From: a phage
Strand: one strand, 5' to 3'
DNA length: 64,000 nucleotides
Sequence record: PQ400056.1
The position numbers and the translations under genes are program-made. Positions 3,853 through 64,000 of the stretch are shown piece after piece. The notes below the pieces were generated by a model, which did no database searches, had not been told where the DNA came from, and saw only the letters and a program-made list of their open reading frames with translations. Every line of letters starts with the position of its first letter. The first letter of the stretch is position 1.

Positions 3853-3856
3853 TTAA

Positions 3857-3874
3857 AGGGGGCGAAAGCCCCCT
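3857..3874 (+). promoter_or_regulatory. GC hairpin between genes 34 and 35 (AGGGGGC-GAAA-GCCCCCT)
   Basis: perfect 7-bp stem with GAAA loop immediately after the gene 34 stop; no T-run, so probably an RNA structure rather than a full terminator. Confidence 0.3.
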
Positions 3875-3885
3875 ATGGGGTTATT

Positions 3886-5025: not shown

Positions 5026-5035
5026 CATTTTTAAC

Positions 5036-5066
5036 AAGCCGATCCATGTGGTCGGCTTTATTTTTA
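5036..5066 (+). terminator. rho-independent terminator after gene 35
   Basis: stem AAGCCGA / TCGGCTT with 9-nt loop followed by TTTATTTTT. Confidence 0.6.
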
Positions 5067-5186
5067 TACAGTTGGTTAAATTGTAACCAAAACGAAGAAA
5101 GATCTTTAGAATAATAGAAAATTTGTTTCGGTTAAAAAATAGCCAGTGCCTACGGCACGTCGCGAAGCGATATTTTGTTAACATTC

Positions 5187-5194
5187 TATAAATA
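5187..5194 (+). promoter_or_regulatory. T4-type late promoter TATAAATA for gene 36
   Basis: exact TATAAATA 33 nt upstream of the gene 36 ATG. Confidence 0.55.
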
Positions 5195-5227
5195 CTCGGA
5201 ACTATAACTAATTTTTGAGGTTACTTT

Positions 5228-6718: not shown

Positions 6719-6722
6719 TTTT

Positions 6723-6747
6723 AGCGGGGATTATCTCCCCGCTTTTC
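6723..6747 (+). terminator. rho-independent terminator after gene 36
   Basis: AGCGGGGA-TTATC-TCCCCGCT followed by TTTC. Confidence 0.5.
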
Positions 6748-6788
6748 TAAATAATATTATTCTAATAACCGTTTAAGGATTTTATAAA

Positions 6789-9719
6789 ATGGCAGATTTA
6801 AGCAGAATCCAATTTAAACGCACTAGCACTAAAGGTCGTAAACCGGATGCTAGTACGATGAATCCGGGGGAATTGGCAATCAACCTTGCGGATCAATATC
6901 TTCTTACTAAAAATGATTCCGGTGATATTATCAATTTAAGTTGTCCTCCGGTGTATGACCGCGATGTTACAATGGCGGGTAAGGTTAAAGGTAATAATTA
7001 TATCTTAAGTAAAACCGCTAACTATCTGGAAGATCAGACAGCGAGAGATCTTAACTACTTTGGTGCTTTCCGTACCAATGGTCTTGATGGTCTTCTCGAA
7101 CTCACGCTAAACGTTCCTCACTCTTCCGGTGTCCAATATGGTCGAGGATTTACTTTCCAGTATGGACATACTGGATCACGAGTAGAAACCTATGGCTATA
7201 ATAGAGAAGGTCAAAAAGCATTTAGCTATAAAATGTATCACGAAGGTGATAAACCAACTCCAGGAGAATTGAACGTCTATAGCAAACAAGAAGTTGACCG
7301 TATGTTTGTTAAGAACGTTAAACTTGCTACATCTCCTCGTGATATCGTTGAAGGCTATTTTAAATTAGCAACTGCAATGATTCCACAAAACGGTCTTAGC
7401 GTATTTTTCCGTATTCATGGCGGTAACGGATATAACGTTACTGCATACGATCAAGTTGATATTGTAGAAATTGTTATTCGCAGTGGAAATGGTCGCCCTA
7501 AAGGTGTTAACGTTATTGCATATCGCCGAAATACAAACAAATCATTTGATGTTTTGGCTGTTAATACTTCTGGTGATAACTATGATATCTATGTGAAATA
7601 TCAGCGTTACACTGATAACGTTATTGTTGAATTTGGTAAAAGTGTTGGTGTTAATCTGGTAGTTCATGACGTTCCAGATTTTGTTGCTGAACGTCCTGCT
7701 GGTGATAATGTTATTGGCGGTCGTGCTGTAACTCTTTTCAACACCGAAAATAAACGTGGTGTGTTAAGTTTTGATGATAACACACAAAACAGCTATGACA
7801 TTGTTCATCTAAGTAATGATAAAGGTACTGGACGGAAATATATTCGTAAATTCCGTAGCAATTATAACGAAATGGTTTGGCATGAAACCGTTCAGGGTGC
7901 TGTATATCGTCTTGCTACTGGTGCTACAGATTCTACAGAAGTTATTAGAATTGATTCTAATAGTGCAATACCGGGTAATTATAAAGGATATGTAATTACT
8001 GGTAAAATGGAATTGCACGGTGGTGGTAATGCGATGACTTTACATCGACAGACTGGTCAAGCTGCATATATGGCGTGGTGGGGTCGTCGTGATGGTAAAA
8101 ACCAACGTAGTGGTTATATCGGTCATGCGGATGGTACTAGTGATGGTTTTGTGTGGCGTAATGATGTTGGTGCTAACTCATTTGATTTGGAAGGTAGTGG
8201 ACAAGTAAATTTGACTACAGGAAAAACAAAAATTGTATATACCAATGGTCAATATTATTCCGCTAACGCTGATGCATTCCGTATGATTTACGGTAAGTAT
8301 GGTGCATTCTGGCGAAATGATGGTGGTAAAGTTTATCTGTTGTCTACTGCCGAAAATGATAGATTTGGTGGTTGGAATACATATCGACCTTTTATCTACG
8401 ATCTTACTTCCGGTAACGTTCAATTAGGTGGTGATGGAAACGAAGATGTATTAACTCTAGAACGCGCAAGCAAGGCCGCTCGATTCTCTGGCAACGCTTA
8501 CATCAAAGGTCAACATTTAACATTTGATGCTGGTGCTGGACAATCCCGCGATTACTTCCGGTTTAACCATTGGGGCGATAGTAATAACGCTCGCGATAAC
8601 ATCCTACAGATTGAAGACAGTCAGGGTGCACACTTTACCACTGAACGCGCTATGGGTACTGGCAATATCACAGCACGTTTTAAAGGCTTTGTGCGTGTAG
8701 AATCCGGTGAGATTGCCTTTGATGCTAATCGTGGATCTGCGTCTCAATTTACCTTACATACATGGGGTAACGAGCAACGCAAACAGGTTTTTGAATGTAA
8801 GGATGCTACTAGTTATCATTGGTATACCGAACGTACAAACGGTGGAACTGGTCCTATCCTGTTCTCTGTTGCTGGTACATTAAAAACTGCGAGCAATATA
8901 CAGGTTGGCGGTGCTGATATTGAGTTTCGTCGCAGTGGTAATAAGCATTTATGGTTTAGAGATCCGAACGGTTTAGAATTAGGTTTGATGTACTGCGATG
9001 ATGCTGGTGTTATCCGCTTCCGTGGTCAGAAACAAGGTCAAACTTGGAAACTTGCTGATAAAATGATTCATCTTGAGGCGGGGACTGTCGGCGGGTCTGA
9101 TAAAGGTTTGATTCGTGGTAATGTTGCTGGTGGTAGCTGGGCTAGCTGGCGTGATCGTTCTGCCGGAATCCTCGTAGACTGTCCGAACTCAACCGATTCC
9201 GCTCATAACATCTGGAAAGCGACTCATTGGGGAAAATATCATATTGCGGCAATGGGTGTGCATGTTCCTAGTGGTACTATTACCAATGCTTTAGCTCGCC
9301 TAAACGTTCACGACGCCAACTTTGACTTTAACGCTGCGGGTGATTTTAGCGCAGGTCGTAACGGTAGCTTTAACGATGTTTATATTCGTTCTGATACTCG
9401 CCTTAAAATCAATAAGGAAGAGTATAAGGAGAATGCCACCGATAAAGTTAATCGCTTGACGGTATACACCTATGACAAGGTTAAATCTTTAACCGACCGT
9501 ACTGTCATTGCTCATGAAGTTGGTATTATTGCTCAGGATCTTGAAAAAGAATTGCCGGAAGCCGTAACAACTTCTAAGATCGGCGATCCAGATAATCCAG
9601 AAGAGATCTTAACAATTTCTAACTCCGCTGTCAACGCTCTTTTAATTAAGGCGTTTCAGGAAATGAGCGAAGAATTGAAAGCCGTTAAAGCTGAACTAGC
9701 GGAACTTAAAAAGAATTAA
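6789..9719 (+). CDS. 37: long tail fibre distal subunit gp37 with C-terminal intramolecular chaperone domain
   Basis: 976 aa; N-terminus MADLSRIQFKRTSTKGRKPDAS matches T4 gp37 MATLKQIQFKRSKIAG; last about 110 aa (9390-9716) carry the SDxRLK ... VGIIAQ ... coiled-coil signature of self-cleaving C-terminal chaperone domains. Confidence 0.85.
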   Translation: MADLSRIQFKRTSTKGRKPDASTMNPGELAINLADQYLLTKNDSGDIINLSCPPVYDRDVTMAGKVKGNNYILSKTANYLEDQTARDLNYFGAFRTNGLDGLLELTLNVPHSSGVQYGRGFTFQYGHTGSRVETYGYNREGQKAFSYKMYHEGDKPTPGELNVYSKQEVDRMFVKNVKLATSPRDIVEGYFKLATAMIPQNGLSVFFRIHGGNGYNVTAYDQVDIVEIVIRSGNGRPKGVNVIAYRRNTNKSFDVLAVNTSGDNYDIYVKYQRYTDNVIVEFGKSVGVNLVVHDVPDFVAERPAGDNVIGGRAVTLFNTENKRGVLSFDDNTQNSYDIVHLSNDKGTGRKYIRKFRSNYNEMVWHETVQGAVYRLATGATDSTEVIRIDSNSAIPGNYKGYVITGKMELHGGGNAMTLHRQTGQAAYMAWWGRRDGKNQRSGYIGHADGTSDGFVWRNDVGANSFDLEGSGQVNLTTGKTKIVYTNGQYYSANADAFRMIYGKYGAFWRNDGGKVYLLSTAENDRFGGWNTYRPFIYDLTSGNVQLGGDGNEDVLTLERASKAARFSGNAYIKGQHLTFDAGAGQSRDYFRFNHWGDSNNARDNILQIEDSQGAHFTTERAMGTGNITARFKGFVRVESGEIAFDANRGSASQFTLHTWGNEQRKQVFECKDATSYHWYTERTNGGTGPILFSVAGTLKTASNIQVGGADIEFRRSGNKHLWFRDPNGLELGLMYCDDAGVIRFRGQKQGQTWKLADKMIHLEAGTVGGSDKGLIRGNVAGGSWASWRDRSAGILVDCPNSTDSAHNIWKATHWGKYHIAAMGVHVPSGTITNALARLNVHDANFDFNAAGDFSAGRNGSFNDVYIRSDTRLKINKEEYKENATDKVNRLTVYTYDKVKSLTDRTVIAHEVGIIAQDLEKELPEAVTTSKIGDPDNPEEILTISNSAVNALLIKAFQEMSEELKAVKAELAELKKN

Positions 9720-9759
9720 GGAAACTCCCAGGGAAGGGAACTACTAAGGAGAAACGGCT

Positions 9760-9999
9760 ATGGTCTATAATATCGTCATTGGTGCTTTGTCTAATTTCGG
9801 AATGAAATTATTGTCAAAGTTAATTAGTGAAAAGATGCTCACTAAAATTTTCTTCTATTGCGCTCGTCGTCTTGCGGCCTATACCAATACGCCAATTGAT
9901 GATCGTTTCGTGGAAGAACTTTATAAGGAGTTTAATAAAGATCAGTCAGAAGATAGTAACGAGCAAGATAAACCTAGTGATAGTCAAGTACCTAAATAA
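9760..9999 (+). CDS. hypothetical protein (79 aa) in the position of gene 38
   Basis: ORF between gene 37 and holin t; no similarity to the T4 gp38 adhesin/chaperone recognised. Confidence 0.35.
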   Translation: MVYNIVIGALSNFGMKLLSKLISEKMLTKIFFYCARRLAAYTNTPIDDRFVEELYKEFNKDQSEDSNEQDKPSDSQVPK

Positions 10000-10032
10000 G
10001 AGTACACTGTCATAGTTATCTTAGGGCATTAT

Positions 10033-10689
10033 ATGCAAGTTTCTGAAAAAGGGAAAGACTTTGCTATCTCAAATGTCCTGCGCGCTATTTTCACAACTAA
10101 AAGCACGGAGTTGCTCGTACTTCGTGTTTTTGCTGCCGTCGTGTTGTCCATATTAGCATTTGTCGTTTATAGTAAAAACGAGTTATTTGCGCTTTATAAA
10201 GAGACTCGTTATGAGACTTATGCTCACATTCTCCAGGTAGAGAAAGACCGCAATTTTGATAATGCAGCACAGGAGCAGTTACAGATAGTTCATGTGTCGG
10301 CTGATGCCGATTTTTCTGCTGTTTTTAGTTTTCGTCCGAAAAACCTAAACTATTTTGTTGATTTGGTGGCATATGAAGGAAAGCTACCGCATACAATCGA
10401 TGAAAAAAATTTAGGCGGATTCCCTATCAATAAAACGAGTGAAGAATATCGTAGGCATCTTTTAGGTAAATCATATTTTACCGATAAAGATTTCCAGTAT
10501 ATTCCATCAAGAGAAAAGAAATTAGAGAATATCGATATAGGTTTCATGTATTCTTGTCCTATATTCAATCTCGATAATGTCTATTCTGGTAGTATCGCCA
10601 TTTCATGGAAGAATAAACCGGATATTGACATTGAGAATTTAGATACTCTTTGCAATCAATCTGCCAGAATCCTCGGAAGGATTAGATAA
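10033..10689 (+). CDS. t: holin T
   Basis: 218 aa, same length as T4 T; motifs LEQLQIVHVSADADFSAVFSFRPKNLNYFVD and YSCPIFNLDNVYSGSI match remembered T4 holin sequence. Confidence 0.9.
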   Translation: MQVSEKGKDFAISNVLRAIFTTKSTELLVLRVFAAVVLSILAFVVYSKNELFALYKETRYETYAHILQVEKDRNFDNAAQEQLQIVHVSADADFSAVFSFRPKNLNYFVDLVAYEGKLPHTIDEKNLGGFPINKTSEEYRRHLLGKSYFTDKDFQYIPSREKKLENIDIGFMYSCPIFNLDNVYSGSIAISWKNKPDIDIENLDTLCNQSARILGRIR

Positions 10690-10973: not shown

Positions 10974-11302
10974 TCTGGAAACTTCCCGTAAATGTTCTCT
11001 GCTAACATACGCGCATCGCTAATGATATCTTTCATGCTATGACCGTAGTGTTCAGCCATTGAGTTGACACAATCAACAAAGAAATTATAACGGCGACGGT
11101 TTAAGATTTCTTCTCTGCTATAGTTTTCATATTTGACGGTCGAGTGTGCTTTCTCGATTGCCTTGATTGCTATATTGACTTCATTGATAATGGTTTTAGC
11201 ATTGTATGCGCCACGACGGATCAGGATATTTGTCAATTCTCTTGCAATATCTTGCAATTCTTCATATTCATGTTCAAACATAATCAACCTCTCAAAATAC
11301 AA
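10970..11302 (-). CDS. hypothetical protein (110 aa)
   Basis: ORF with stop-start overlap to neighbours in the minus-strand array. Confidence 0.5.
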   Translation of the reverse strand: MYFERLIMFEHEYEELQDIARELTNILIRRGAYNAKTIINEVNIAIKAIEKAHSTVKYENYSREEILNRRRYNFFVDCVNSMAEHYGHSMKDIISDARMLAENIYGKFPE

Positions 11303-49634: not shown

Positions 49635-50451
49635 CTCGCTCTTTACCAATCAAAAATTCAACTTCACGACGTTTAATGTCTTCTTGAAGGTCTTTAATCT
49701 TCTGGCGATCTTGCATGATTTCATCCATCTTGTCAAGTGCCGCAATGAAATCATCGAAACGTTCAAAGGTTTTACCTTCATTTGCTTCGCCAAATTTAAC
49801 CATTGTCAGGCCGTAACGACTACTAAACAGACGTTTCAACTGTCCAACGATCTTAGAATCAGTGGTTATAACTTCCAATTCTTCTACTTCACGAAAGAAT
49901 TTTCTATCAGAATCAATAAACCAGCTAGTTCCTTTATGGTCTCTATCTTCGGTTGCGCTCATTAGAGTATGGTCTTTACCATCAATTTCAATTACATCAA
50001 TTTGCCCACATGGACTAACATTTTTAACAGTAAAAGGTCTATAATTTATTGCTCGTGCAATAACATAATTAAGGTTAGATACGTTTTCAGCATAATGGCA
50101 GAAGTCGGTCATAGCATTCGCATCTTTCCAAGTATAAGTTTTACCAACTTCCCATTTCTGGGGAACTTCTTCAACTTCACGAAAGAATTTTCTATCGAAT
50201 GGACTAAAGAAATATGTGGCAGTCCAAATGTCTTTTCCTGTAGCAGTTTTCGCCGTATGATAAACACCGTCTAGCTCTATTGCATCAATCCAACCGTTAC
50301 CATCGATCTCGATGATGGTAAATGGCTTGTCACCAATAGCTGCACTAATATCGCTGTTAAGTGGAGAAAGAACACCTTCTCCGTTAGTAATAAACTCAGT
50401 TTTAGCGTTTTCATCTTTCCAGGTGTAGGTTTTACCAATTTCCCATTTCAT
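49627..50451 (-). CDS. paralogous-family protein, member 2 (internal two-fold repeat)
   Basis: 274 aa; MKWEIGKTYTWKDENA ... DRKFFREVEE repeated as QKWEVGKTYTWKDANA ... DRKFFREVEE. Confidence 0.55.
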   Translation of the reverse strand: MKWEIGKTYTWKDENAKTEFITNGEGVLSPLNSDISAAIGDKPFTIIEIDGNGWIDAIELDGVYHTAKTATGKDIWTATYFFSPFDRKFFREVEEVPQKWEVGKTYTWKDANAMTDFCHYAENVSNLNYVIARAINYRPFTVKNVSPCGQIDVIEIDGKDHTLMSATEDRDHKGTSWFIDSDRKFFREVEELEVITTDSKIVGQLKRLFSSRYGLTMVKFGEANEGKTFERFDDFIAALDKMDEIMQDRQKIKDLQEDIKRREVEFLIGKERGW

Positions 50452-50463
50452 AATATATTCCCC

Positions 50464-50964
50464 TTAACCGATTTTATCAAGTTCGTTTAATGCTTTCTCT
50501 GCTTCCTGTATAGCTTGCACTCTTTCCGGCATTTTGTCAAGAAAATCTTTCAACTCTTCAAAACTGGAGATATGACGCAAGGCATTAGCACCGATAGCCG
50601 CATGTGATTTGCATTCAAAGCGAATTTTATAATTATCCATCGCCAATTTGAGAAGGTCTATTAGATCATATTCATGACCAGGCAATAAAACTTCTTTGAA
50701 GCACGCTCGGTCGCCATCGGAAAACCATATATTATCACCAACATCGATAGAACTAATATAATCCCCTTCGTGATTATAGATTGAACGTACATTACCCCAA
50801 CGGTCTACCGTAGCGACAGTAAATGGTTTATCTAGATATGTAAACACACCATCAATATTAGGTTTTTGTTCGTAACGCCAACAATCACGCAAAATGCGCT
50901 TTTCGTCCTCACCAACCAACTTATATGTCTTCCCTTCTTCCCATTTCATAATATCATCTCTCAT
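50464..50964 (-). CDS. paralogous-family protein, member 3
   Basis: 166 aa; MKWEEGKTYKL ... DRACFKEV plus coiled-coil C-terminus. Confidence 0.55.
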   Translation of the reverse strand: MRDDIMKWEEGKTYKLVGEDEKRILRDCWRYEQKPNIDGVFTYLDKPFTVATVDRWGNVRSIYNHEGDYISSIDVGDNIWFSDGDRACFKEVLLPGHEYDLIDLLKLAMDNYKIRFECKSHAAIGANALRHISSFEELKDFLDKMPERVQAIQEAEKALNELDKIG

Positions 50965-51491
50965 TTTTTGATACGTGATTCTAATTGGATCATACGGTCG
51001 CGCGTTTGCTTGTATTCGCGGATAGCACCGATCCGGCTAGGCATACCATCAAGCACGCTCTTAATCCCTTCTAGGGTAGTGATTTTAGCAATGCTATTAT
51101 GTAACCCCATCTTATCGATCAACTGAATGTCGTAGGCTTCCATAAGCAGACCCAGACGTTCTAAAGTTAGGTCTTCTTCTTTTTCTTCCGATTCTGGAAT
51201 CTTAGGTTCAATAATAACTTCGGTAAAGAAACGACGCTCACCCGACCAAAACCACACACCGGAACAGCCAATAGGGGATTCTTTTAACGTCATAGAGTCG
51301 AAATCACTACCGATAATAGTAATTTCTCTAACATCACCATCATCGTCAATGTCTTCTACCCTAAACGGGCGACCAGCCAACAAGTCAACAATACATCTGT
51401 TAATAGACGACGAAAATTTAGTCAGTTCGGCTTTCGACGCTTCGCATTCAATCTTGTAAGTTTTACCAACTTCCCATTCCATAATAATCAC
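50961..51491 (-). CDS. paralogous-family protein, member 4
   Basis: 176 aa; MEWEVGKTYKI ... ERRFFTEV plus coiled-coil C-terminus. Confidence 0.55.
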   Translation of the reverse strand: MIIMEWEVGKTYKIECEASKAELTKFSSSINRCIVDLLAGRPFRVEDIDDDGDVREITIIGSDFDSMTLKESPIGCSGVWFWSGERRFFTEVIIEPKIPESEEKEEDLTLERLGLLMEAYDIQLIDKMGLHNSIAKITTLEGIKSVLDGMPSRIGAIREYKQTRDRMIQLESRIKK

Positions 51492-51492
51492 C

Positions 51493-51996
51493 TCAAATAA
51501 TTTTCACTGGAATACTATTAACAATCTTGTATTGTACTTGATTGTCAGACCCCCGCCACGGCTTCTTCGTTGGCATATCTTTAATATAACGCCCATCGAT
51601 GAACATGTCAACTGATTCTACAATTTTTCTTTGCTCATCATTCAATTGGTCAAGGGTATAACCGGACCATAGCCAAATATCTTTATTTGGCATCCATGAT
51701 TTTACTTCATCGATGATCCGCTGTACACCCTTTAAATTGCGTTTATACAGTGGATCGCCACCTAAGAATGTTAGCCCCTGAATAAAATCAGGTCTAAGCA
51801 GGTCCAGAATCAATCCCATTGTATCATCGGTGAATGGTTCCCCGTTCTTAGGATTGAGTAGGCTAGCATTAAAGCAACCATCACATGCGTGTGAACATCC
51901 GGTAACGTAAAGGGAGACTCTCACTCCCTCACCGTTAACCATATCACAATCTTTAATATCGGCATAGCGTAGTTTGCCGTATGTATCAGAACTCAT
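51493..51996 (-). CDS. nrdG: anaerobic ribonucleotide reductase activating protein NrdG (radical SAM)
   Basis: CSHACDGC (CxxxCxxC), GLTFLGGDPLY, KDIWLWSGY, KPWRGSDNQ match remembered T4 NrdG; ATG 51996 (track start is TTG). Confidence 0.88.
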   Translation of the reverse strand: MSSDTYGKLRYADIKDCDMVNGEGVRVSLYVTGCSHACDGCFNASLLNPKNGEPFTDDTMGLILDLLRPDFIQGLTFLGGDPLYKRNLKGVQRIIDEVKSWMPNKDIWLWSGYTLDQLNDEQRKIVESVDMFIDGRYIKDMPTKKPWRGSDNQVQYKIVNSIPVKII

Positions 51997-52213: not shown

Positions 52214-52741
52214 TTATTTTAAATTTTTTCGAATGTAGTCAGACCATTCCTTCCCTGTCAGTTCGGTCCCATTCTGGAAACTGAAATATTCATACGGCAT
52301 CGAGTCAAGATAAAACAGGATCATACATCGCGCCATATAATACCAATCACGATTAAAGTAAACTACGTTATCGCCAGTACCATCAGCACCTTTATCATAA
52401 CCATCGCGGGTACGGGCGACCCATTGAATAGTATCATTTTTCTCACGGATCGTAACAGGTTCCCAATATCCAGCACATCCAGCATGACCACACGAACAAG
52501 TAATGAAATATTGTCCTTTTGCTTTGTTGTCATCCCATTCACGATGGATTGGTTCGATCTCGTGAAACAGTGCTAAGCAATCATGATTATGCAACACTGG
52601 CTTACCATCAATCAATGCATGGAATGTATACAAACGACCCGTAGACAAATAGCTATCCTCACGCTCAACCAGTTCAATAGCAATCTTTTTAGCTCGTTCT
52701 TTGTGTCGTTGTGCTTTACGCTTACGGTTTAATGATTTCAT
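52214..52741 (-). CDS. hypothetical Cys/His-rich protein (175 aa)
   Basis: basic N-terminus MKSLNRKRKAQRHKERAKK; HNHDCLALFHEIEPIHREW and CSCGHAGCAGYW suggest metal binding; ATG 52741 with GAGGTGA SD. Confidence 0.5.
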   Translation of the reverse strand: MKSLNRKRKAQRHKERAKKIAIELVEREDSYLSTGRLYTFHALIDGKPVLHNHDCLALFHEIEPIHREWDDNKAKGQYFITCSCGHAGCAGYWEPVTIREKNDTIQWVARTRDGYDKGADGTGDNVVYFNRDWYYMARCMILFYLDSMPYEYFSFQNGTELTGKEWSDYIRKNLK

Positions 52742-52758
52742 ATTCACCTCACACATTA

Positions 52759-53298
52759 TCAAAGGTCGCGATATAGTACATTATGAAAATGAGAACTTGC
52801 ATTACCAATATTGTAGATAATAAATTCTTCATCCGGCGCTTGCGCTACAAATTGAGTATGAGCAACCGCCACAACCTTAAAAATACGATCCGTGATCTTG
52901 TGTTTAATTTCTGCCCCTACTTCCATAGGAACATATTCATTTGTTTCTGTTTCAGTCGCAAAACAGCCATCTTCTTCATAAGCACGAACAAATCGATCGC
53001 AATCAGTACGCTTAACAAATTCAAGAGTATACAATTCTCGTGAATTGTCGGTATAGACCAATACAGAATTATTATGATAGCGAATCACATACAGGTTATT
53101 ATCATCGTCAATTACGCAAAAGCTACGGATTCCTTCGCCTTTACTCCAGCAGATATTAACCACCGTTCCTCTAATAAAAAAACTTTCCTTTAAATTAAAA
53201 CTAGTCAATGTGCTAGCGTGCATTTTAACAACAACACCATCGCCAATTTCCAGTTTACGAAGTTTAACTTCTTTGTTCAGTACACAAAACATCATCAT
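52759..53298 (-). CDS. hypothetical protein (179 aa)
   Basis: first gene after the nrdD terminator-promoter pair; ATG 53298 with GAGAGG SD. Confidence 0.5.
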   Translation of the reverse strand: MMMFCVLNKEVKLRKLEIGDGVVVKMHASTLTSFNLKESFFIRGTVVNICWSKGEGIRSFCVIDDDNNLYVIRYHNNSVLVYTDNSRELYTLEFVKRTDCDRFVRAYEEDGCFATETETNEYVPMEVGAEIKHKITDRIFKVVAVAHTQFVAQAPDEEFIIYNIGNASSHFHNVLYRDL

Positions 53299-53327
53299 GT
53301 TGTCCTCTCGTTGTTTTCGATGTGAGC

Positions 53328-53355
53328 ATTATACATTAGCTAATCATGTTGTCAA
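53328..53355 (-). promoter_or_regulatory. consensus sigma70-type promoter TTGACA, 16 nt, TATAAT
   Basis: minus-strand TTGACA (53355-53350), TATAAT (53333-53328); mirrored on the plus strand at 56596-56623 in the inverted copy. Confidence 0.6.
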
Positions 53356-53361
53356 CACCCC

Positions 53362-53393
53362 AAAACGAAAAAGCCGACCCTTTCGGATCGGCT
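53362..53393 (-). terminator. rho-independent terminator after nrdD
   Basis: minus-strand AGCCGATCCGAAAGGGTCGGCT followed by TTTTCGTTTT. Confidence 0.6.
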
Positions 53394-53398
53394 GAAAT

Positions 53399-55262
53399 TT
53401 ACATGTGCTTAACGCGGTTTACCATCTCGGAGTGTTTCCCGTGGTTGAATGGACGCAGATCAACAGATCCAAGATATCCACTAACGCGACGGATAACATT
53501 CATCTTTTCCAGATTGTCATTACCGCAATCAGGACAAACAAAACCAGACTCGGTCGCTCTCATTTCCTTAGTAGATCCGCATACATGACATACATCAGAA
53601 GGAGTATTAACACCGAAGTAGTGCAATTTATCCATTGCATAGTCTACTACAGTTTCAAGACCTTTCAGGTTGTTTTTCATGTCTGGGAACTCAACATAAG
53701 AGATCATGCCACCGGACGCCAGCCAGTGATAATCTTTCTCAAAGTCAATTTTCTCAAATGGAGTGACTTTCCGGTCTACGTCAAGGTGGAATGAGTTGGT
53801 GTACCAGTCTTTATCGGTAGCACCCTTAACAATACCAAATTGCTCTCGGTCCAGTCGATTAAATCGATAGCAAAGGCTCTCGGCTGGAGTACCGTAAAGA
53901 CTAAACCCAAGTCCGGTTTCGTCCTTCCATTTTTCAGTATAATGACGCAAGATCTTAAGAATATGTTTACCGTATCGCTGCGCATCTTCCGAATCAAACG
54001 GATGAACACCAAACAGGACGCTCAATACCTCATGTAAACCAATATATCCAAGAGAGATACTAGCGCGACCATCTTTCAACACTTCCAAAATTTCATCGTT
54101 TTGATGAATACGGAAAAACGCACCTTCGGTATACAGCACCGGAGCAACATTGGCTTTAGCCCCTTTTAAAGCGTCTACGCGACTCATGAGCGCATCAAAG
54201 CAAATAGGCATACGATTGGCTAGCTCTTGTTCGAATAGCTCAATTCTGCGCATTACAGACGCTTTACCAGCACGACGCGCGGCAATAAGGGCAATACGCG
54301 GAAGATTCAGGGTCACAACACCCAAGTTATTACGTCCGTCTAATACTTCTTCTCCTTTCTCATTATGCCACACACCCAGGAAGCTACGACAACCCATCGG
54401 GCTAACCGGAACACTAGATCCGGTGATACTACGGTTATTCTTCGCAGAGATATAATCAGGGTAAAGACGCTTACTAGAACATTCCAATGCAAGTTGCTTA
54501 ATGTCGTAGTTCGGATCTTCCGGTTTAAGGTTTAATCCTTCTTCTAAGAACATCACCAGCTTAGGAAACACCGGAGTGATACCATCTTTACCTAAACCTT
54601 TAGTTCGAACGTTCAGGATCGCTTTCTGAATCAGTTTTTTCTTCCCAGCTAGTACCCATACCAAAGGTTAAAGTCACAAAAGGCGTTTGACCGTTGGTGG
54701 AGAACAAAGTGTTGATTTCATATTCCAACGCCTGATATCCGTCTAACGTTTCTTTTTCTGTTTTCTCTTGTGCATAGAGAGTATCAGCTTTGATTCCGTA
54801 GGTTTCGGCATCAGCAAGGTGTTTATAATATGTTTTCTCAACATACGGTGCTAACACCTGATCGATGTTTGCGATTGTGGTCCCGCCATATTGATGACTT
54901 GCCACCTGTGCGATAATTTGAGCGGTTACAGCACAAGCAACGCCGATTGATTTCGGACTTTCGATTTGTGCGCTACCCAATTTAAAACCATTCTCTAACA
55001 TGTCTTTGAGATTAACAAGACAGCAGTTAGTAAACGGCATAGCGGGTGCATAATCCATATCATGATAATGAATGTCACCGTCTACATGCGCTTTATAGAT
55101 GTGCTCAGGTAACACGGTTTTAGCAATCTGTTTAGACACAGCACCAGCAATCAGATCTCGACGTGTCGGGAATGTTCGCGCGTCTTTGTTCGCGTTCTCT
55201 TTGCTTACTTCGTTTTCTTTACCCGTTGCGATCTCTGTAATGTCTTTGATTAGTTTTTCCAT
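53399..55262 (-). pseudogene. nrdD: anaerobic ribonucleotide reductase NrdD, interrupted by a 1-nt frameshift in an A6 run
   Basis: N-terminal ORF 54600-55262 (ENANKDARTFPTRRDL, FTNCCLVNLKDMLENGFKLG, TFGMGTSW) and C-terminal ORF 53399-54664 (LIQKAILNVRTKGLGKDGITPVFPKLV ... C-terminal CPDCG zinc ribbon) match remembered T4 NrdD; frames join if the A run at 54635-54640 (minus strand) is 5 nt; no intron. Confidence 0.85.
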
Positions 55263-55404
55263 TGTATCACCTATGAAAAAGCGGGATTTCTCCCGCTCGT
55301 TGATAGTTATTTTACCAGTTCTGCTAATTCTTTTTCTTTAGCTTCTAGTTCAGCTTTAAGCTGTTTAATCTCTTGTCGCTTCTTATTCATATTACGCTAA
55401 AGAA

Positions 55405-57721
55405 TAGAAGAAGGATTAAACCTTAAACCGGAAGATCCGAACTACGACATTAAGCAACTTGCATTGGAATGTTCTAGTAAGCGTCTTTACCCTGATTATA
55501 TCTCTGCGAAGAATAACCGTAGTATCACCGGATCTAGTGTTCCGGTTAGCCCGATGGGTTGTCGTAGCTTCCTGGGTGTGTGGCATAATGAGAAAGGAGA
55601 AGAAGTATTAGACGGACGTAATAACTTGGGTGTTGTGACCCTGAATCTTCCGCGTATTGCCCTTATTGCCGCGCGTCGTGCTGGTAAAGCGTCTGTAATG
55701 CGCAGAATTGAGCTATTCGAACAAGAGCTAGCCAATCGTATGCCTATTTGCTTTGATGCGCTCATGAGTCGCGTAGACGCTTTAAAAGGGGCTAAAGCCA
55801 ATGTTGCTCCGGTGCTGTATACCGAAGGTGCGTTTTTCCGTATTCATCAAAACGATGAAATTTTGGAAGTGTTGAAAGATGGTCGCGCTAGTATCTCTCT
55901 TGGATATATTGGTTTACATGAGGTATTGAGCGTCCTGTTTGGTGTTCATCCGTTTGATTCGGAAGATGCGCAGCGATACGGTAAACATATTCTTAAGATC
56001 TTGCGTCATTATACTGAAAAATGGAAGGACGAAACCGGACTTGGGTTTAGTCTTTACGGTACTCCAGCCGAGAGCCTTTGCTATCGATTTAATCGACTGG
56101 ACCGAGAGCAATTTGGTATTGTTAAGGGTGCTACCGATAAAGACTGGTACACCAACTCATTCCACCTTGACGTAGACCGGAAAGTCACTCCATTTGAGAA
56201 AATTGACTTTGAGAAAGATTATCACTGGCTGGCGTCCGGTGGCATGATCTCTTATGTTGAGTTCCCAGACATGAAAAACAACCTGAAAGGTCTTGAAACT
56301 GTAGTAGACTATGCAATGGATAAATTGCACTACTTCGGTGTTAATACTCCTTCTGATGTATGTCATGTATGCGGATCTACTAAGGAAATGAGAGCGACCG
56401 AGTCTGGTTTTGTTTGTCCTGATTGCGGTAATGACAATCTGGAAAAGATGAATGTTATCCGTCGCGTTAGTGGATATCTTGGATCTGTTGATCTGCGTCC
56501 ATTCAACCACGGGAAACACTCCGAGATGGTAAACCGCGTTAAGCACATGTAAATTTCAGCCGATCCGAAAGGGTCGGCTTTTTCGTTTTGGGGTGTTGAC
56601 AACATGATTAGCTAATGTATAATGCTCACATCGAAAACAACGAGAGGACAACATGATGATGTTTTGTGTACTGAACAAAGAAGTTAAACTTCGTAAACTG
56701 GAAATTGGCGATGGTGTTGTTGTTAAAATGCACGCTAGCACATTGACTAGTTTTAATTTAAAGGAAAGTTTTTTTATTAGAGGAACGGTGGTTAATATCT
56801 GCTGGAGTAAAGGCGAAGGAATCCGTAGCTTTTGCGTAATTGACGATGATAATAACCTGTATGTGATTCGCTATCATAATAATTCTGTATTGGTCTATAC
56901 CGACAATTCACGAGAATTGTATACTCTTGAATTTGTTAAGCGTACTGATTGCGATCGATTTGTTCGTGCTTATGAAGAAGATGGCTGTTTTGCGACTGAA
57001 ACAGAAACAAATGAATATGTTCCTATGGAAGTAGGGGCAGAAATTAAACACAAGATCACGGATCGTATTTTTAAGGTTGTGGCGGTTGCTCATACTCAAT
57101 TTGTAGCGCAAGCGCCGGATGAAGAATTTATTATCTACAATATTGGTAATGCAAGTTCTCATTTTCATAATGTACTATATCGCGACCTTTGATAATGTGT
57201 GAGGTGAATATGAAATCATTAAACCGTAAGCGTAAAGCACAACGACACAAAGAACGAGCTAAAAAGATTGCTATTGAACTGGTTGAGCGTGAGGATAGCT
57301 ATTTGTCTACGGGTCGTTTGTATACATTCCATGCATTGATTGATGGTAAGCCAGTGTTGCATAATCATGATTGCTTAGCACTGTTTCACGAGATCGAACC
57401 AATCCATCGTGAATGGGATGACAACAAAGCAAAAGGACAATATTTCATTACTTGTTCGTGTGGTCATGCTGGATGTGCTGGATATTGGGAACCTGTTACG
57501 ATCCGTGAGAAAAATGATACTATTCAATGGGTCGCCCGTACCCGCGATGGTTATGATAAAGGTGCTGATGGTACTGGCGATAACGTAGTTTACTTTAATC
57601 GTGATTGGTATTATATGGCGCGATGTATGATCCTGTTTTATCTTGACTCGATGCCGTATGAATATTTCAGTTTCCAGAATGGGACCGAACTGACAGGGAA
57701 GGAATGGTCTGACTACATTCG
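55405..57721. repeat. inverted repeat arm 2: inverted duplicate of nrdD 3' part, terminator, promoter and two ORFs
   Basis: track ORFs 55464-56552, 56653-57192 and 57189-57800 duplicate the 53399-54664, 52759-53298 and 52214-52762 products; the last acquires a different C-terminus past the repeat boundary at 57721. Confidence 0.9.
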
Positions 57722-57800
57722 CCATCTGATGGTTGCTTTTAGTGATTGCCGACAGCATCCGGGGAAGTACAATAATAAATGGGAATTGATGACCTGTTAA

Positions 57801-58060
57801 GACCTGATTTATTGGGGTAAATTTTAGGTGAAATCACTGTATAAAAAATTAAAGGGGCTGAGGATATAAATAAAATAAAATGGAGAGCCAAAGAGTCTCA
57901 GGGAACCTCCAGAAAAAAAGGGGAGGGGGGGGGGGAGAGAGTATTTATTAGTGGGTGTGGCTGTCGGGGAATTTTTATGAGGGGAATTGATGGTTCAAAT
58001 TGATTAAAAAGATGGGCTGCATATAAAAAGGGATCGGGAAAAAATATCTAAAACAGTAAC
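57801..58060. other. purine-rich low-complexity bridge with no coding capacity (probable chimeric junction)
   Basis: strong A/G bias with very few C, G run of 11 at 57925-57935, GGGGAGAGAG-type strings; separates AT-rich phage sequence from GC-rich P2-like sequence. Confidence 0.6.
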
Positions 58061-58166
58061 TCATCCAAGCATCACACATCACTATGCCGACACAGAAGAC
58101 ACCGTGCTGGAAATTCAGCGGCTGGCTACCGTCTGCCGCGACACCCTGAATGGCATGACGAAGTAA
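58061..58166 (+). other. 3' fragment of a truncated upstream ORF of the P2-like replication region
   Basis: open frame ...HPSITHHYADTEDTVLEIQRLATVCRDTLNGMTK ending 7 nt before the gene A start; 5' part absent. Confidence 0.3.
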
Positions 58167-58172
58167 ATCACT

Positions 58173-60938
58173 ATGACGGCAGAGCACATCAGGGACTGGC
58201 AACAACCGCGCCACGCAGTGGGGCGTGAAGGAACGGGGATCCCCGCTCCTGAATCCGCGCTTTCCTCCTGGCTGGATGCCTACCGGGCAGAGAACGAGCG
58301 CCGCAAGGAAATGGCTGATGCGGCGTTCTCCGCCACGCCGCTGGGCAACCTGATTAATAAAAGCCTGGACGCACAGGAAAAACAGGACAAAACCATCACA
58401 CTGGCAGGAGACGCCAGAAAACAGGCACGCGGCGCAGTGGATGAAGCCATGGCCTCGCTGCGCCTGCTGCCGTCCTATCTGCGCGATCCGCTTATTCGCC
58501 ACCTCTCCTTCCTGCGCAAAAAACAGGAAGCCGATCGCCGGAAAGGCAAAAAGAGCTGGCAGGCGGAACGCTATGCACGCGGAACCCTGCGCAAAATATT
58601 CGAACGTCTGGACCGCACCGATCACCGCTGGCTGACACCGGGTTATCGCTCCCTTGCCGGACGCGAACGCCTGGACGATTTGCTTTACCTGCCGCAGCTC
58701 AACAAACACCAGATACAGACGCTGGCCACCATGACGGCGGCGATGTTCAGCAGCACCTTCGAAAAACTCTGCGATGGCTTTGGCGCGACCGATGGCGAGC
58801 TGACCATGGATGTAACGCTGAAGGCGTATCAGATGCTGGCCCGCATGGCGTTACACCTGCACGCCATGCCTCCACATTATGACGCACTGACAACAGACAA
58901 AGACCGGAGGAACGAACCAGACACGGAGCTGCTGCCGGGCGCAATCCTTCGCCTGACCTGTGCGGAATGGTGGAAACGCAAACTGTGGCTGTTACGTTGC
59001 GAGTGGCGGGAAGAACAACTCCGCGCCGCCTGTCTGGTTTCCAGAAAAACATCGCCCTATCTGAGCCAGGACGCGTTAAGCGAGTTTCGCGCACAGCGCG
59101 AGAAAACACGCGATTTCCTGAAAAGTTTCATGCTGGAAAATGAAGACGGGTTCACGATTGATCTCGAGACGGTGTATTACGCGGGAGTAAGTAACCCGGT
59201 TCACCGTAAGGCAGAAATGATGGCCACCATGAAGGGACTGGAACTTCTGGCCGAAGCCCGTGGCGACAGAGCGGTGTTTCTGACCGTCACCTGCCCGTCA
59301 AAATACCACGCAACAACGGAGAACGGTCATCCGAACCCCAAATGGAACGGGGCCACCATGCGCGACTCCAGCGATTACCTGGTTAACACGTTTTTTGCGG
59401 CGGTCCGCAAAAAACTGAACCGCGACGGCCTGCGCTGGTATGGCATCCGCACGGTGGAGCCTCACCATGACGGCACTGTGCACTGGCATATGATGGTCTT
59501 TGCACATCCGGACGAGATTGAAACCATCGTGTCCCACGTCTGCGATATTGCCATTCAGGAGGACCGCCACGAGCTGGGCGATGACATAACTCCGCGTTTT
59601 AAGGCGGAGTATGTCGACGGCTCAAAAGGCACACCAACCAGCTACATCGCCACCTACATCGGAAAGAACCTGGACAGCCGCGCCGTGGATGGCATCGACC
59701 CGAAAACGGGCAAGCCACGCGTTGACCACGAAACCGGAAAATCAATGGCCGAGAGCGTGGAGCGCGCCATCGGCTGGGCGCGCCTTCACCGGGTCCGTCA
59801 GTTCCAGTTCTTTGGCATCCCCTCCCGTCAGGTGTGGCGTGAACTGCGCCGCCTTGCCAGCCAGATGGCACGCAATCCGGAAGGCCCGCAACGGCTGAAA
59901 GATGATGCAATGGATGCGGTACTCGCTGCCGCCGATGCCGGGTGTTTTGCCACCTACATTGAAAAACAGGGTGGCGTGCTTGTTCCACGCAAGGACTACC
60001 TGATTCGCACCGCCTACGACCTCGCAGATGAGCTGAACGATTACGGCGAACAGAGCGTACAGATTTACGGGATCTGGTCACCACTCATCGGGGAATCCTC
60101 CCGTGTGTGCACGCATCCGGATAACTGGAAATTGGTAAGACGTAAACCAGAACCAGAAGACAACGCCCACGAAAATGGTTTTGACCTTCAGGGCGGCCCT
60201 GCCGCCCCTTGGACTCGTGGCAATAACTGTCCCCGTGTACAGGAAACAGGCAACAGCGGGACAGAACAGTCGGAAGAACGGCCAGCACCGTGGCCGCAGC
60301 TTCCTGACGGCGTTGATGTGGATGAATGGATGCGCTCACTGAAACGGCACGAACGCCGGGCGCTGATGCGTTCGCTGCGTGACAAACAGGCAAAAAACAA
60401 CAGTGATGAAATGCAGAACTGGACACAGAGCCGCAAACAGCCGCGGCCTTTGCCTGATAACCACGAGTTACTCGCTAAAGAATGGCGGGAGTCTGCCGAA
60501 TCTCTCGGCCTGCATATCGGTGAACAACAGATGCTGCACCTGTTACGGGGCGGCAGTCTGTACGTTGACGGCAGCATCATTGCGCCGCAGGGATATGAAA
60601 TTGTATGTAAACCGGATACCCGACCGGACAGCCGAATCACGCAACTCTGGCAGCGCCTGAGTCGTAATCACAGCGTAAACAGCACGGAAATCCGCCATAA
60701 CCCGGTTTCCAGCTATCTGAAACAGCTCGGGGCATCAGACCCAGAAGCCGCCGCACGCCTGGCATCCACAATTCAGCAGGACCAGAACACCATGAAAACT
60801 CCCGTTACCGTGCTTTCTGACATGCTGCGCGCCATCCGTGACGCAGAGCACGCACAGAGAATCAATGAAACCACTGAACGCGCACGTCACAAGGCGGGTC
60901 TGTTGCAGGGCAAAGGCAATAGCGAGAAGAAAAAATAA
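58173..60938 (+). CDS. A: P2-type replication initiation protein A (HUH rolling-circle endonuclease)
   Basis: 921 aa, GC-rich; HUH motif VHWHMMVF and dual-tyrosine motif YIATYIGKN typical of the P2/186 gpA family; minus-strand track ORFs inside it are judged spurious. Confidence 0.85.
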   Translation: MTAEHIRDWQQPRHAVGREGTGIPAPESALSSWLDAYRAENERRKEMADAAFSATPLGNLINKSLDAQEKQDKTITLAGDARKQARGAVDEAMASLRLLPSYLRDPLIRHLSFLRKKQEADRRKGKKSWQAERYARGTLRKIFERLDRTDHRWLTPGYRSLAGRERLDDLLYLPQLNKHQIQTLATMTAAMFSSTFEKLCDGFGATDGELTMDVTLKAYQMLARMALHLHAMPPHYDALTTDKDRRNEPDTELLPGAILRLTCAEWWKRKLWLLRCEWREEQLRAACLVSRKTSPYLSQDALSEFRAQREKTRDFLKSFMLENEDGFTIDLETVYYAGVSNPVHRKAEMMATMKGLELLAEARGDRAVFLTVTCPSKYHATTENGHPNPKWNGATMRDSSDYLVNTFFAAVRKKLNRDGLRWYGIRTVEPHHDGTVHWHMMVFAHPDEIETIVSHVCDIAIQEDRHELGDDITPRFKAEYVDGSKGTPTSYIATYIGKNLDSRAVDGIDPKTGKPRVDHETGKSMAESVERAIGWARLHRVRQFQFFGIPSRQVWRELRRLASQMARNPEGPQRLKDDAMDAVLAAADAGCFATYIEKQGGVLVPRKDYLIRTAYDLADELNDYGEQSVQIYGIWSPLIGESSRVCTHPDNWKLVRRKPEPEDNAHENGFDLQGGPAAPWTRGNNCPRVQETGNSGTEQSEERPAPWPQLPDGVDVDEWMRSLKRHERRALMRSLRDKQAKNNSDEMQNWTQSRKQPRPLPDNHELLAKEWRESAESLGLHIGEQQMLHLLRGGSLYVDGSIIAPQGYEIVCKPDTRPDSRITQLWQRLSRNHSVNSTEIRHNPVSSYLKQLGASDPEAAARLASTIQQDQNTMKTPVTVLSDMLRAIRDAEHAQRINETTERARHKAGLLQGKGNSEKKK

Positions 60939-61118
60939 CCAAGAAAGAAATCATCAATTGTATGAAGGTAGAGTTTAGACATGGTAAGGACGTTCCATGA
61001 GGCACACTGTAATTTCATATAGTATTCCTCTTCCCTGTTTGATAAAAAAGTGCAATACTATAAATAGTCCAGTTAAATGTTTTTTCAATTCACTTAAAAT
61101 CAAGAGGTTACAGTTAAG

Positions 61119-62240
61119 ATGGGCGACTTAGGTGGTATTCAGTCAGATTTAGCCCAACTAGTTAGACTGGTAATAACTGAACAGTATGATGACGTTCGGT
61201 TATATGTCGCTCGCTTGGTGCGTAAATATCGGGAAACTATGCCTGCTCTATCCGAGCAGCTTGATCTTTATCTACGAAATAAACCGCAAAAGCCTGCACA
61301 AAGCCTGCGTAAGGTTACCGCACCAAAACAAGCGCTGCCTCAAACCATGCCTGTGGACGAGGAGTCAAGGCTTACCTTGCTTAAAGCACCAAATGAAAAG
61401 ATTGTGAGCAAACCTCTACTGTCCAGTCAGATAGAAGACTCACTGGATCAAATTATTCTTGAGCGGAAGCACATCGATCGCCTCAAGACTCTCGGCTTAC
61501 AACCAACACGCTCTGCCATTTTTGTTGGCCCTCCGGGTGTAGGTAAAACACTTACGGCAAGCTGGTTAGCTCAGAAATTAGGGGTTCCTTTTTACGTTCT
61601 TGATTTAACGGCAGTAATGAGCAGCTATCTGGGCAAAAGCGGAAATAACCTTCGGGCAGCTCTAGATTTTGCGAAGAAAGGGCCGTGCGTTCTTCTGTTA
61701 GATGAAATTGATTCAATCGCCAAAAAGAGAAGTGATGATTCTGATGTTGGAGAATTAAAAAGACTTGTTACCGTAATACTCCAGGAGGTTGACGAATGGC
61801 CGTCTTCTAGTTTGCTACTTGCTGCAACTAACTTCGCTGAGTTGATTGATCCAGCACTATGGAGACGTTTTGATTTAGTGCTCAATTTTGAGAAGCCAGA
61901 TAGCGAAAGTATTAAAGAAGCAATTAAACGCTTTTCAGGTCCCGACTACGCGATTTTTGCACGTTGGATAGATCTACTGGCTATTATGTTCAAAAATGAA
62001 TCTTTTAGTAATATTGAGCGTTCTATCAACAAATTCCGACGTTCGGTCGCTTTAGGTATTTCCTCAGATGAAGAGTTGATTGGGTCGTTCATTAAAGATG
62101 GTTTATCAGAATTAGACAGGAATGAACGTAAAGAAATTGCAGTTACTCTAAAAAGAAATTCTAAATTATCCCAGCATGCCATATCAGACTTAACCGGAGT
62201 CAGTAGGGATACAATTAGAAAATACAGTCAAAAAATGTAA
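61119..62240 (+). CDS. AAA+ ATPase (373 aa), candidate defence-module component
   Basis: Walker A GPPGVGKT, Walker B VLLLDEID, sensor-1 LLLAATN, arginine-finger region PALWRRFD; AAGAGG SD; AT-rich island directly downstream of GC-rich gene A. Confidence 0.85.
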   Translation: MGDLGGIQSDLAQLVRLVITEQYDDVRLYVARLVRKYRETMPALSEQLDLYLRNKPQKPAQSLRKVTAPKQALPQTMPVDEESRLTLLKAPNEKIVSKPLLSSQIEDSLDQIILERKHIDRLKTLGLQPTRSAIFVGPPGVGKTLTASWLAQKLGVPFYVLDLTAVMSSYLGKSGNNLRAALDFAKKGPCVLLLDEIDSIAKKRSDDSDVGELKRLVTVILQEVDEWPSSSLLLAATNFAELIDPALWRRFDLVLNFEKPDSESIKEAIKRFSGPDYAIFARWIDLLAIMFKNESFSNIERSINKFRRSVALGISSDEELIGSFIKDGLSELDRNERKEIAVTLKRNSKLSQHAISDLTGVSRDTIRKYSQKM

Positions 62241-62263
62241 TACAGCATAGATAAGGAGTATGT

Positions 62264-62521
62264 ATGGCGAAAACTAATTTTCTGATTGGACGCGGCGAAT
62301 TATTAACCAGCGATATTCCTGGTCCTAAAAGAGTGCCCGGAAAAGCTGAGGTTTATTCTCTTTACGAATCGAAACAACGTTTATTGCCGCAAATTGCATC
62401 TACTATAGAAAATTTTGATGATTTACCCAGTCAGGCATGTCCTTATGATTATGCTGTGGCTAAGTTGACGTTGAATCCGAGCTATATTGCACGCTCTTTT
62501 TTTTCCTGCAAAAATGCTTAA
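62264..62521 (+). CDS. small ORF (85 aa), possibly the frameshifted N-terminus of the downstream subtilase
   Basis: strong AAGGAG SD; ends 3' of a T8 run (62497-62504); removing one T fuses it in frame to the subtilase ORF. Confidence 0.45.
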   Translation: MAKTNFLIGRGELLTSDIPGPKRVPGKAEVYSLYESKQRLLPQIASTIENFDDLPSQACPYDYAVAKLTLNPSYIARSFFSCKNA

Positions 62522-64000
62522 GTCTACCGGGTTAACGTCTATTGGCAGCAGGACGGTAAAAATTACGCCTCAAAGCTGGAAGCGAAAAGTTACTGTGTCA
62601 GAAGTAACTACGACACAAATGTTTGTTGCTGGTAAAAGAGAATCCTTCAAAGAGTTACCTCATTGGGTGTCAGGACTCAAAGAGTTTTCTGACGAAGCGA
62701 TTGATTTTGCACGCATAGAACGGTTCGATGCCTATTTACCCGAAGAGCGTATTATTACCATTGGTGAGCAGGATTCTTCGTATTTTGAGGTTGGTGTTCA
62801 TTTACTGCCAGATAATGAACAAGACTTGGTTCAGCAACAATTTGTTCAGTTTGCATCAAATTTGAACATCAAAGTACATACTTCATTAGCTTTTACCGCT
62901 GGTACATTATGGTTCGTGCCAATCCAGGCCGATAGAATTACTATTAGTAAGCTTGCGAAATTTACATTTGTACGAGTAATAAGACCGGTTCCAAGATTGC
63001 GTGGGATTAGACCAATACAAAGGAACTACGGTCCTTTAGCTCAGTGTAAATTGCCTGCTGAGGGCCCCGTATCTTCAGAAATAAAAGTTGCGATTCTTGA
63101 TGGTGGTTTACCATCAGAGCACGCTATATCGCCATGGTTAAAATCCTATAGAGTTTTGGACGATCATGCAGAGGATGATCCAGACGGTTTAGAGCATGGT
63201 TTAGCTGTGTCTTCAGCCTTTTTATTTGGACCAATAAGTAATAAATCGGAAGCGAAAAGACCATACTCTTATATTGATAACTTAAGAGTTTTGGACAACA
63301 AGACCTGCCAAGAAGATCCGCTGGAACTATATCGAACTTTGGGCTTTATTGAAGAGGTATTGTTGTCTCGCCAGTATCAGTTTATCAATCTAAGTTTAGG
63401 TCCAGACCTACCAATTGAAGATACGGAAGTTCATGCATGGACTTCCGTTATTGATGATTTGTTAAGTGATGGTGAAACATTAATGACTGTTGCTGTTGGC
63501 AACAATGGAGAAATGGATCGCAAGTCTGGTAATGCAAGAATTCAAGTACCAGCCGATTGCGTTAATGCTCTTGCTGTTGGTGCTTGTGATACAGTTAATG
63601 ATACGGAATGGAAACGAGCACCATATAGCGCCATTGGGCCAGGCAGAAGTCCTGGCGTGATGAAACCGGATTTAGTTGCGTTTGGTGGTGACACAGACGA
63701 GTACTTTCATGTTTTAGGTAAAGGTAAGAAGCCTGTAATCATACCCCAGCTAGGAACAAGCTTTGCCTCTCCTTACGCCTTACGAGCAGCTGTTGGTGTT
63801 CGGGCAATTTTAGGGAACGATTTGAGCCTACTAGCAATCAAAGCTTTGTTAATTCATGCGTCAAAACAGCTTGATCATCCTTGTACAGAAGTTGGCTGGG
63901 GAAAACTTCCTGAAGACTTGAACGACATTATAGTCAGCCCTGATGGTGTTGCCCCGCTCGGAAGGTTACACAAACCCTGGACAAGGTCTCGTGGGCTCGG
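62514..64000 (+). CDS. subtilisin-like serine protease (peptidase S8), partial at window end
   Basis: catalytic motifs in D-H-S order: VAILDGG, LEHGLAV, VAVGNNGE (oxyanion Asn), GTSFASPY; ORF remains open to 64000; no SD before its own ATG. Confidence 0.8.
   Translation, partial: MLKSTGLTSIGSRTVKITPQSWKRKVTVSEVTTTQMFVAGKRESFKELPHWVSGLKEFSDEAIDFARIERFDAYLPEERIITIGEQDSSYFEVGVHLLPDNEQDLVQQQFVQFASNLNIKVHTSLAFTAGTLWFVPIQADRITISKLAKFTFVRVIRPVPRLRGIRPIQRNYGPLAQCKLPAEGPVSSEIKVAILDGGLPSEHAISPWLKSYRVLDDHAEDDPDGLEHGLAVSSAFLFGPISNKSEAKRPYSYIDNLRVLDNKTCQEDPLELYRTLGFIEEVLLSRQYQFINLSLGPDLPIEDTEVHAWTSVIDDLLSDGETLMTVAVGNNGEMDRKSGNARIQVPADCVNALAVGACDTVNDTEWKRAPYSAIGPGRSPGVMKPDLVAFGGDTDEYFHVLGKGKKPVIIPQLGTSFASPYALRAAVGVRAILGNDLSLLAIKALLIHASKQLDHPCTEVGWGKLPEDLNDIIVSPDGVAPLGRLHKPWTRSRGL

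Follow-up and report, generated by a model that had tools for sequence, protein, structure and literature searches.

Viral reference records are known to contain foreign sequence, and this has been recognised as a problem (PMC9765019). Contaminated or misassembled phage contig ends are marked by a high-identity fragment of host prophage, by a synthetic adapter and by joins that are unique to the contig. Lasken and Stockwell (2007, PMC1855051) reported that inverted sequences with an intervening deletion dominate among the chimeras formed during MDA and make up more than 85% of them, and that at more than 70% of the junctions priming began where 2-21 nt of the new template were complementary. 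For phages of the RB49 type, general transduction has been reported (Taniashin et al. 2003, as cited in a passage of PMC8056088). The P2-like prophage of the porcine ETEC chromosome UMNK88 has a hotspot in which gpA, IetA and IetS follow each other and are then followed by the portal gene. In two-colour sequencing chemistry, dark cycles are called as G.

Here we analysed a window, that is the whole stretch of 64,000 nt of phage DNA under study (sequence record PQ400056.1), in which a T4-type phage genome runs into P2-like prophage DNA. As in contaminated or misassembled phage contig ends, a high-identity host prophage fragment, a synthetic adapter and unique joins were present, but the arrangement was more elaborate than usual, in that it combined four joins with a perfect fold-back of 2.3 kb and, in the filler, a corrupted copy of a gene. 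The sequence comparisons suggested that the last 8.6 kb is very probably an artefactual chimeric contig tail with host prophage DNA, in which the pieces follow in the order phage, 17-nt filler, inverted phage copy, 340-nt filler, prophage fragment, 31 nt and adapter (Table 1).

Table 1 Pieces of the 64,000-nt window, with their positions and the observations that define them
Feature	Position	Strand	Details
Genuine Krischvirus (RB49-like, T4-type) segment	1-55387		runs from the long tail fibre genes to a point upstream of nrdD
Left arm of the inverted duplication, natural context	52230-54546	-	nrdD 3' part, gene 118, most of gene 119
17-nt filler CATATTACGCTAAAGAA	55388-55404		natural continuation of neither flank accounts for it
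Right arm, inverted copy of 52230-54546	55405-57721	+	kaaroe 71331 to 73647, plus strand
Corrupted nrdG copy, first half of the 340-nt filler	57722-57892	+	reverse complement of window 51684-51889
Exact prophage 20-mer GTGATTGCCGACAGCATCCG	57742-57761	+	identical to UMNK88 locus L002 3982-4001
Orphan purine-rich second half of the filler, with G11	57893-58061		no source detectable
3' remnant of a 121-aa P2-like hypothetical gene	58062-58166	+	about 34 codons left; match starts at 3996 in CDS 3733-4098
P2-type replication endonuclease gpA, 921 aa	58173-60938	+	Phage_GPA, E 1.7e-129
IetA AAA ATPase of the IetAS anti-phage system	61119-62240	+	IetA E 1e-77; AAA domain
IetS S8 peptidase, frameshifted and broken off at 63954	62264-63954	+	E 6.7e-52 on the intact UMNK88 copy
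31 orphan nt in place of the natural prophage continuation	63955-63985		sequence comparison with the prophage
GTCTCGTGGGCTCGG, first 15 nt of the Nextera read-2 transposase adapter	63986-64000	+	one exact match

The Krischvirus segment and its inverted copy

The left flank of the junction belongs to Krischvirus (Straboviridae). The sequence from 1 to 55387 matched the phages kaaroe and pEJ01 in colinear blocks with 97-99% identity, and 88-55387 tracked the minus strand of kaaroe from 125841 down to 70491. Next to the junction, 56000-57721 was 99.7% identical to kaaroe. The natural Krischvirus order of nrdD, 118, 119, 120 and nrdG was not continued past 55387. The high-identity colinear match over 1-55387 indicated that the phage part is an ordinary Krischvirus.

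After 55387 and the 17-nt filler, the phage sequence folds back on itself. The two arms of the inverted duplication are 2317 nt long and aligned with 0 mismatches and 0 gaps, and in kaaroe coordinates the fold-back jumps from 70491 (descending) to 71331 (ascending), which leaves an offset of 840 nt. All 59 matching Krischvirus records break exactly at 55387/55405, and a search of viral contigs for the fold-back join did not find it. The joins were scanned for ONT, PacBio, Ion Torrent, 454, MGI, TruSeq and Nextera adapters in about 120 comparisons. The result showed a weak resemblance of CATATTACGCTAAAGAA to Nextera read-1 adapter read-through (z 4.1), which is at most suggestive given that number of comparisons.

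The phage sequence near this point also contains a 31-nt direct repeat, present in four copies at 50135-51487 on the minus strand and adjoining nrdG. At least three of the four copies span start codons of small paralogous genes, and the N-termini of these paralogues read MKWEIGKTY, MKWEEGKTY and MEWEVGKTY (the VOG4723 family in kaaroe). This native paralogue cluster could tangle the assembly graph near the end of colinearity. In nrdD (53398-55262, minus strand; anaerobic ribonucleotide reductase), a T6 run was observed at 54635-54640, compared with T5 in kaaroe and pEJ01, and the extra T splits the gene between one ORF of 220 aa and another of 421 aa; the 220-aa product is on record nowhere. 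Either the extra T is an error of sequencing in a homopolymer, or nrdD is a pseudogene private to this phage.

The 340-nt filler

Homology to the phage ends at 57721, and the true span of the filler is 57722-58061, 340 nt. The base make-up of 57801-58060 was A 37.7%, G 30.0%, T 23.8% and C 8.5%, with a C fraction close to the window minimum. The purine fraction of the same stretch was 0.68, at most 0.004 below the top 260-nt value of the 64 kb (0.681, at 57799), and over the whole window the purine fraction had a mean of 0.473 (sd 0.048) and reached the level of the filler nowhere else. The G11 at 57925-57935 is the sole G/C run of at least 7 or A/T run of at least 9 in the 64 kb, and the 3-mer entropy of the 340-nt segment was the lowest in the window. 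At least three stops were found in each of the six frames, and the final 26 codons of the ORF at 57189-57800 are encoded by the filler. At 58060-58100 the GC content rises abruptly, from about 0.40 to about 0.60. Rfam gave no match to the filler, and tandem repeats were not found in it. The original prediction had described a purine-rich, C-poor segment with a G run of 11, about 260 bp long and without an ORF. Its description of the composition was borne out by the composition and homopolymer scan of the 64 kb, and the stops in every frame agree with it as well, but the segment is 340 nt long and starts at 57722.

Two kinds of recognisable sequence were found in the filler. The first half, compared with the phage's own nrdG, gave a local score of 155, as against 73.7 ± 8.2 for shuffles, with 145 of the 208 alignment columns identical and 63 differing. 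The indels of this copy comprised 36 deletions and 3 insertions. Among the 40 C of the reference 22 were lost, 16 of them through deletion, and A, G and T were each kept at 75-80%. Skipped in the filler are the 342 nt that would naturally follow the inverted arm; they hold the last part of gene 119, then gene 120 and the first part of nrdG. Within the nrdG-like sequence stands the exact prophage 20-mer, GTGATTGCCGACAGCATCCG, which in the prophage directly precedes the start of the block, with a 6-nt overlap. A patch of loose similarity between nrdG and the prophage ORF was seen, as judged by eye.

When 57893-58061 was aligned to the rest of the window, to the prophage block and to the UMNK88 prophage locus, the scores were not above those of shuffles. 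The same segment had zero matches in E. coli genomes and only chance-level short hits in phage records searched in distant mode, and a 48-mer from this half was absent from viral, metagenome and genome contig collections. Two other readings of the filler were rejected. As degraded upstream prophage sequence, the filler scored 35.5, compared with a shuffle mean of 35.4. The 5-nt CATCC that flanks 57762-58061 was considered as the target-site duplication of a small insertion element, and this reading was discarded because terminal repeats and coding capacity are absent and the content is nrdG-like.

The prophage fragment and the end of the contig

The right flank of the junction is 5.9 kb of P2-like prophage (Peduoviridae, P88/Xuanwuvirus type), as indicated by gpA and by the nucleotide identity to P2-like phages, with 96.7% identity to phage P88 over the gpA region. 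At 58069-63954 (5886 nt), 5885 nt match the four porcine ETEC chromosomes UMNK88, ETEC1749, rl0044 and ETEC4085, the one difference being an extra T, and the next-best genomes were 98.1% identical. An extra AA stands at 58067-58068, and from 58069 onward the identity to the prophage is clean. The block covers only positions 3996-9885 of the UMNK88 locus, with both ends inside genes. The remnant of the small ORF at its left end had no Pfam match. No att, cos or int was found in the block, which by these marks is not a complete element, and its genes are limited to gpA, IetA, IetS and the remnant of the small ORF, with no recombinase, transposase or homing endonuclease among them. Terminal repeats around the block were not found, the sole flanking repeat being the 5-nt CATCC. 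These results suggested that the prophage part is an ordinary P88-like fragment. The contiguity of T4-like and P2-like DNA, and a P2 ORF cut mid-gene with its last 34 codons left, had both been predicted, and both agree with the Krischvirus on the left, the P88-type prophage on the right and the truncated CDS.

The adjacency of IetA and IetS identifies the IetAS system, of which the copy of IetS in the window is damaged, and the system occupies the hotspot between gpA and the portal gene (61119-63954; 7051-10421 in the UMNK88 locus). Of 5426 complete E. coli genomes, about 42 have the block in full. The gene order is identical to that of the UMNK88 hotspot, but the window has no more than an internal fragment of 5.9 kb, in which IetS carries a frameshift and is cut short. 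A T8 run was observed at 62490-62497, compared with T7 in all four near-identical ETEC prophages, and IetS is frameshifted after 85 codons. Both nrdD and IetS thus carry one additional T in a plus-strand T-run, which suggests a systematic homopolymer error in the assembly.

At the right end of the window, the prophage sequence is replaced by orphan nucleotides and these by the adapter GTCTCGTGGGCTCGG, for which shuffles averaged 0.04 matches with up to 2 mismatches allowed. The presence of this synthetic adapter means that library-derived sequence entered the contig. The 31-nt tail weakly resembles an ONT barcode flank (z 3.2-4.2), again at most suggestive over about 120 comparisons.

Origin of the contig tail and consequences for the record

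The unnatural joins of the last 8.6 kb were counted as four, at 55388-55404, 57722-58061 and 63955-63985 and then at the adapter. The joins are spanned by no record among the 59 of Krischvirus and the 1444 of E. coli that match this region, and neither a phage record nor any of the 1444 E. coli records extends leftward past 58062. A catalogue of 153 billion gene positions contained neither the product of the ORF extended by the filler nor that of either frameshifted gene. Three marks of a chimera were found, namely unique joins, a synthetic adapter inside the contig and an error-like profile beside perfect sequence. Since 0% and 30% divergence stand side by side, a single evolutionary process is excluded, and good sequence around bad is the pattern that fits. 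The phage/prophage junction is very probably not a biological feature. The original prediction had read the junction as artefactual or chimeric, and this view gained support from the inverted duplication, the corrupted nrdG, the arbitrary prophage fragment, the adapter and the absence of the joins from public records.

In the series of events that we propose, the genuine Krischvirus segment would stop at 55387, and the contig would then have been extended via a few aberrant reads or molecules. The extension would fold back into an exact inverted 2.3-kb copy of the same phage, continue through 340 nt of low-quality filler, made up of deletion-riddled, C-depleted nrdG with the prophage 20-mer and then of sourceless noise, pass into 5.9 kb from the interior of the propagation host's P2-like prophage, and be closed by 31 orphan nt and the Nextera adapter. 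Host or prophage DNA would have been co-purified with the phage lysate, and the joins would have arisen in library preparation, sequencing or assembly. The general transduction reported for RB49-type phages in a passage of PMC8056088 makes host DNA in the lysate plausible, and would be a plausible route for host prophage DNA into a DNase-treated lysate. An arbitrary piece of prophage, cut within genes and virtually identical to that of one E. coli lineage, is what carry-over of DNA from the propagation strain would be expected to give. As judged from the prophage match, the propagation host was likely a porcine ETEC-type E. coli with a P88-like prophage. Our best guess is that the filler comes from a noisy read of a single molecule, or from a consensus that filled a gap, between polished flanks; alternatively, the inverted join may be an in vitro chimera. 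Some observations speak against an artefact of this kind. The Nextera adapter implies Illumina sequencing, yet the deletion-rich filler with its recovery of identity resembles single-molecule noise; a 340-nt filler built from short reads alone would need several overlapping reads, which would hint at a physical in vitro molecule; and general transduction by RB49-type phages, as mentioned in the same passage of PMC8056088, makes contact between phage and host DNA possible in virions.

We hold it as a tentative possibility that the chimeras were physical molecules, made in vitro by whole-genome amplification, ligation or PCR of a lysate with phage and prophage DNA and then faithfully sequenced. 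The join at 55388-55404 consists of inverted sequence with an 840-nt intervening offset within the same molecule, as in the MDA inverted chimera, and the adapter in the contig is evidence that sequence from the library found its way into the assembly. However, this join carries a 17-nt filler in place of 2-21 nt of complementary sequence, which is unlike MDA, and a signature such as the 340-nt corrupted filler does not belong to the MDA inverted chimera, while high-fidelity amplification would leave 340 nt of 70%-identical, deletion-rich and C-depleted sequence unexplained. A more specific cause for the filler, already raised in the original prediction as a poly-G-type signal, is the low-signal read tail of two-colour Illumina instruments (NextSeq/NovaSeq), which would have bridged phage and host reads in the assembly. 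The G11 within a purine excess (68% purines, 8.5% C) is shared with such an artefact, and the Nextera adapter is evidence of a library of the Illumina type. Here, however, the G run is internal and not terminal, the errors against nrdG are mostly deletions (36, with 3 insertions) and not substitutions, perfect prophage identity is regained after 58069, unlike in a decaying read tail, and the filler exceeds the length of most reads. In addition, G exceeds C on both sides of the G11, so the filler is not formed by two opposed read tails meeting. The poly-G claim was thus left doubtful, and we regard the read-tail explanation as unlikely.

Illegitimate recombination in vivo between a replicating Krischvirus and a resident P2-like prophage, for example giving a transducing or defective particle of which the filler is the poorly sequenced part, was also considered and is very improbable. 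The packaging of host DNA by RB49-type phages in general transduction (in a passage of PMC8056088) favours it, the near-identity to ETEC prophages fits a very recent event, and the prophage 20-mer in the filler, together with the by-eye similarity of nrdG and the prophage ORF, could serve as microhomology. Several features argue against it. After the block come orphan nucleotides and a synthetic adapter, with no return to phage DNA; neither the adjoining perfect inverted duplication nor the corrupted copy of nrdG makes biological sense; three genes are disrupted (gene 119, the prophage ORF and IetS); and none of the 59 matching Krischvirus genomes shows a similar arrangement. Transducing particles, moreover, are not known to contain anything but host DNA, such as covalent phage-host hybrids with filler and adapters. 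We give hardly any credence to a true covalent hybrid of a strictly lytic RB49-like phage and a resident P2-like prophage that arose in vivo, for example in an infected ETEC host; if true, it would have brought a prophage replication gene and IetAS into a T4-type genome.

With the chimeric contig tail as the preferred reading, the value of the result lies in curation and not in biology, and in a deposited phage genome or contig with this sequence the roughly 8.6 kb from 55388 onward should be trimmed. Left untrimmed, a lytic T4-type phage would wrongly appear to bear a temperate-phage replication gene and the IetAS defence system, and predictions of lifestyle, the screening of therapeutic phages for safety and work on horizontal gene transfer could all be misled. 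The prophage fragment, for its part, reveals the likely propagation host.

Several minor observations concern the phage segment itself. The stretches 7648-9362, 11096-11302 and 50664-50922 had no match in kaaroe, and 50664-50922 was unmatched in pEJ01 too. The first of them lies in the distal long tail fibre gene, was matched at only about 95% in pEJ01, and is probably a host-range variable region. Relative to kaaroe, insertions of 18 nt (TCAACAAACATATTACCA) at 49615 and of 6 nt (TGTACG) at 19887 were found, both of in-frame length, and from their local context they look like tandem duplications. Both look like natural variation. A 15-mer at 1101-1115 (TCTGACGCTGCCGAC), within the proximal tail fibre gene, equals part of the reverse complement of the Nextera read-1 adapter. 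It was discounted as an adapter and is native sequence, the same 15-mer being present in kaaroe and pEJ01, and adapter trimmers could clip such sequence.
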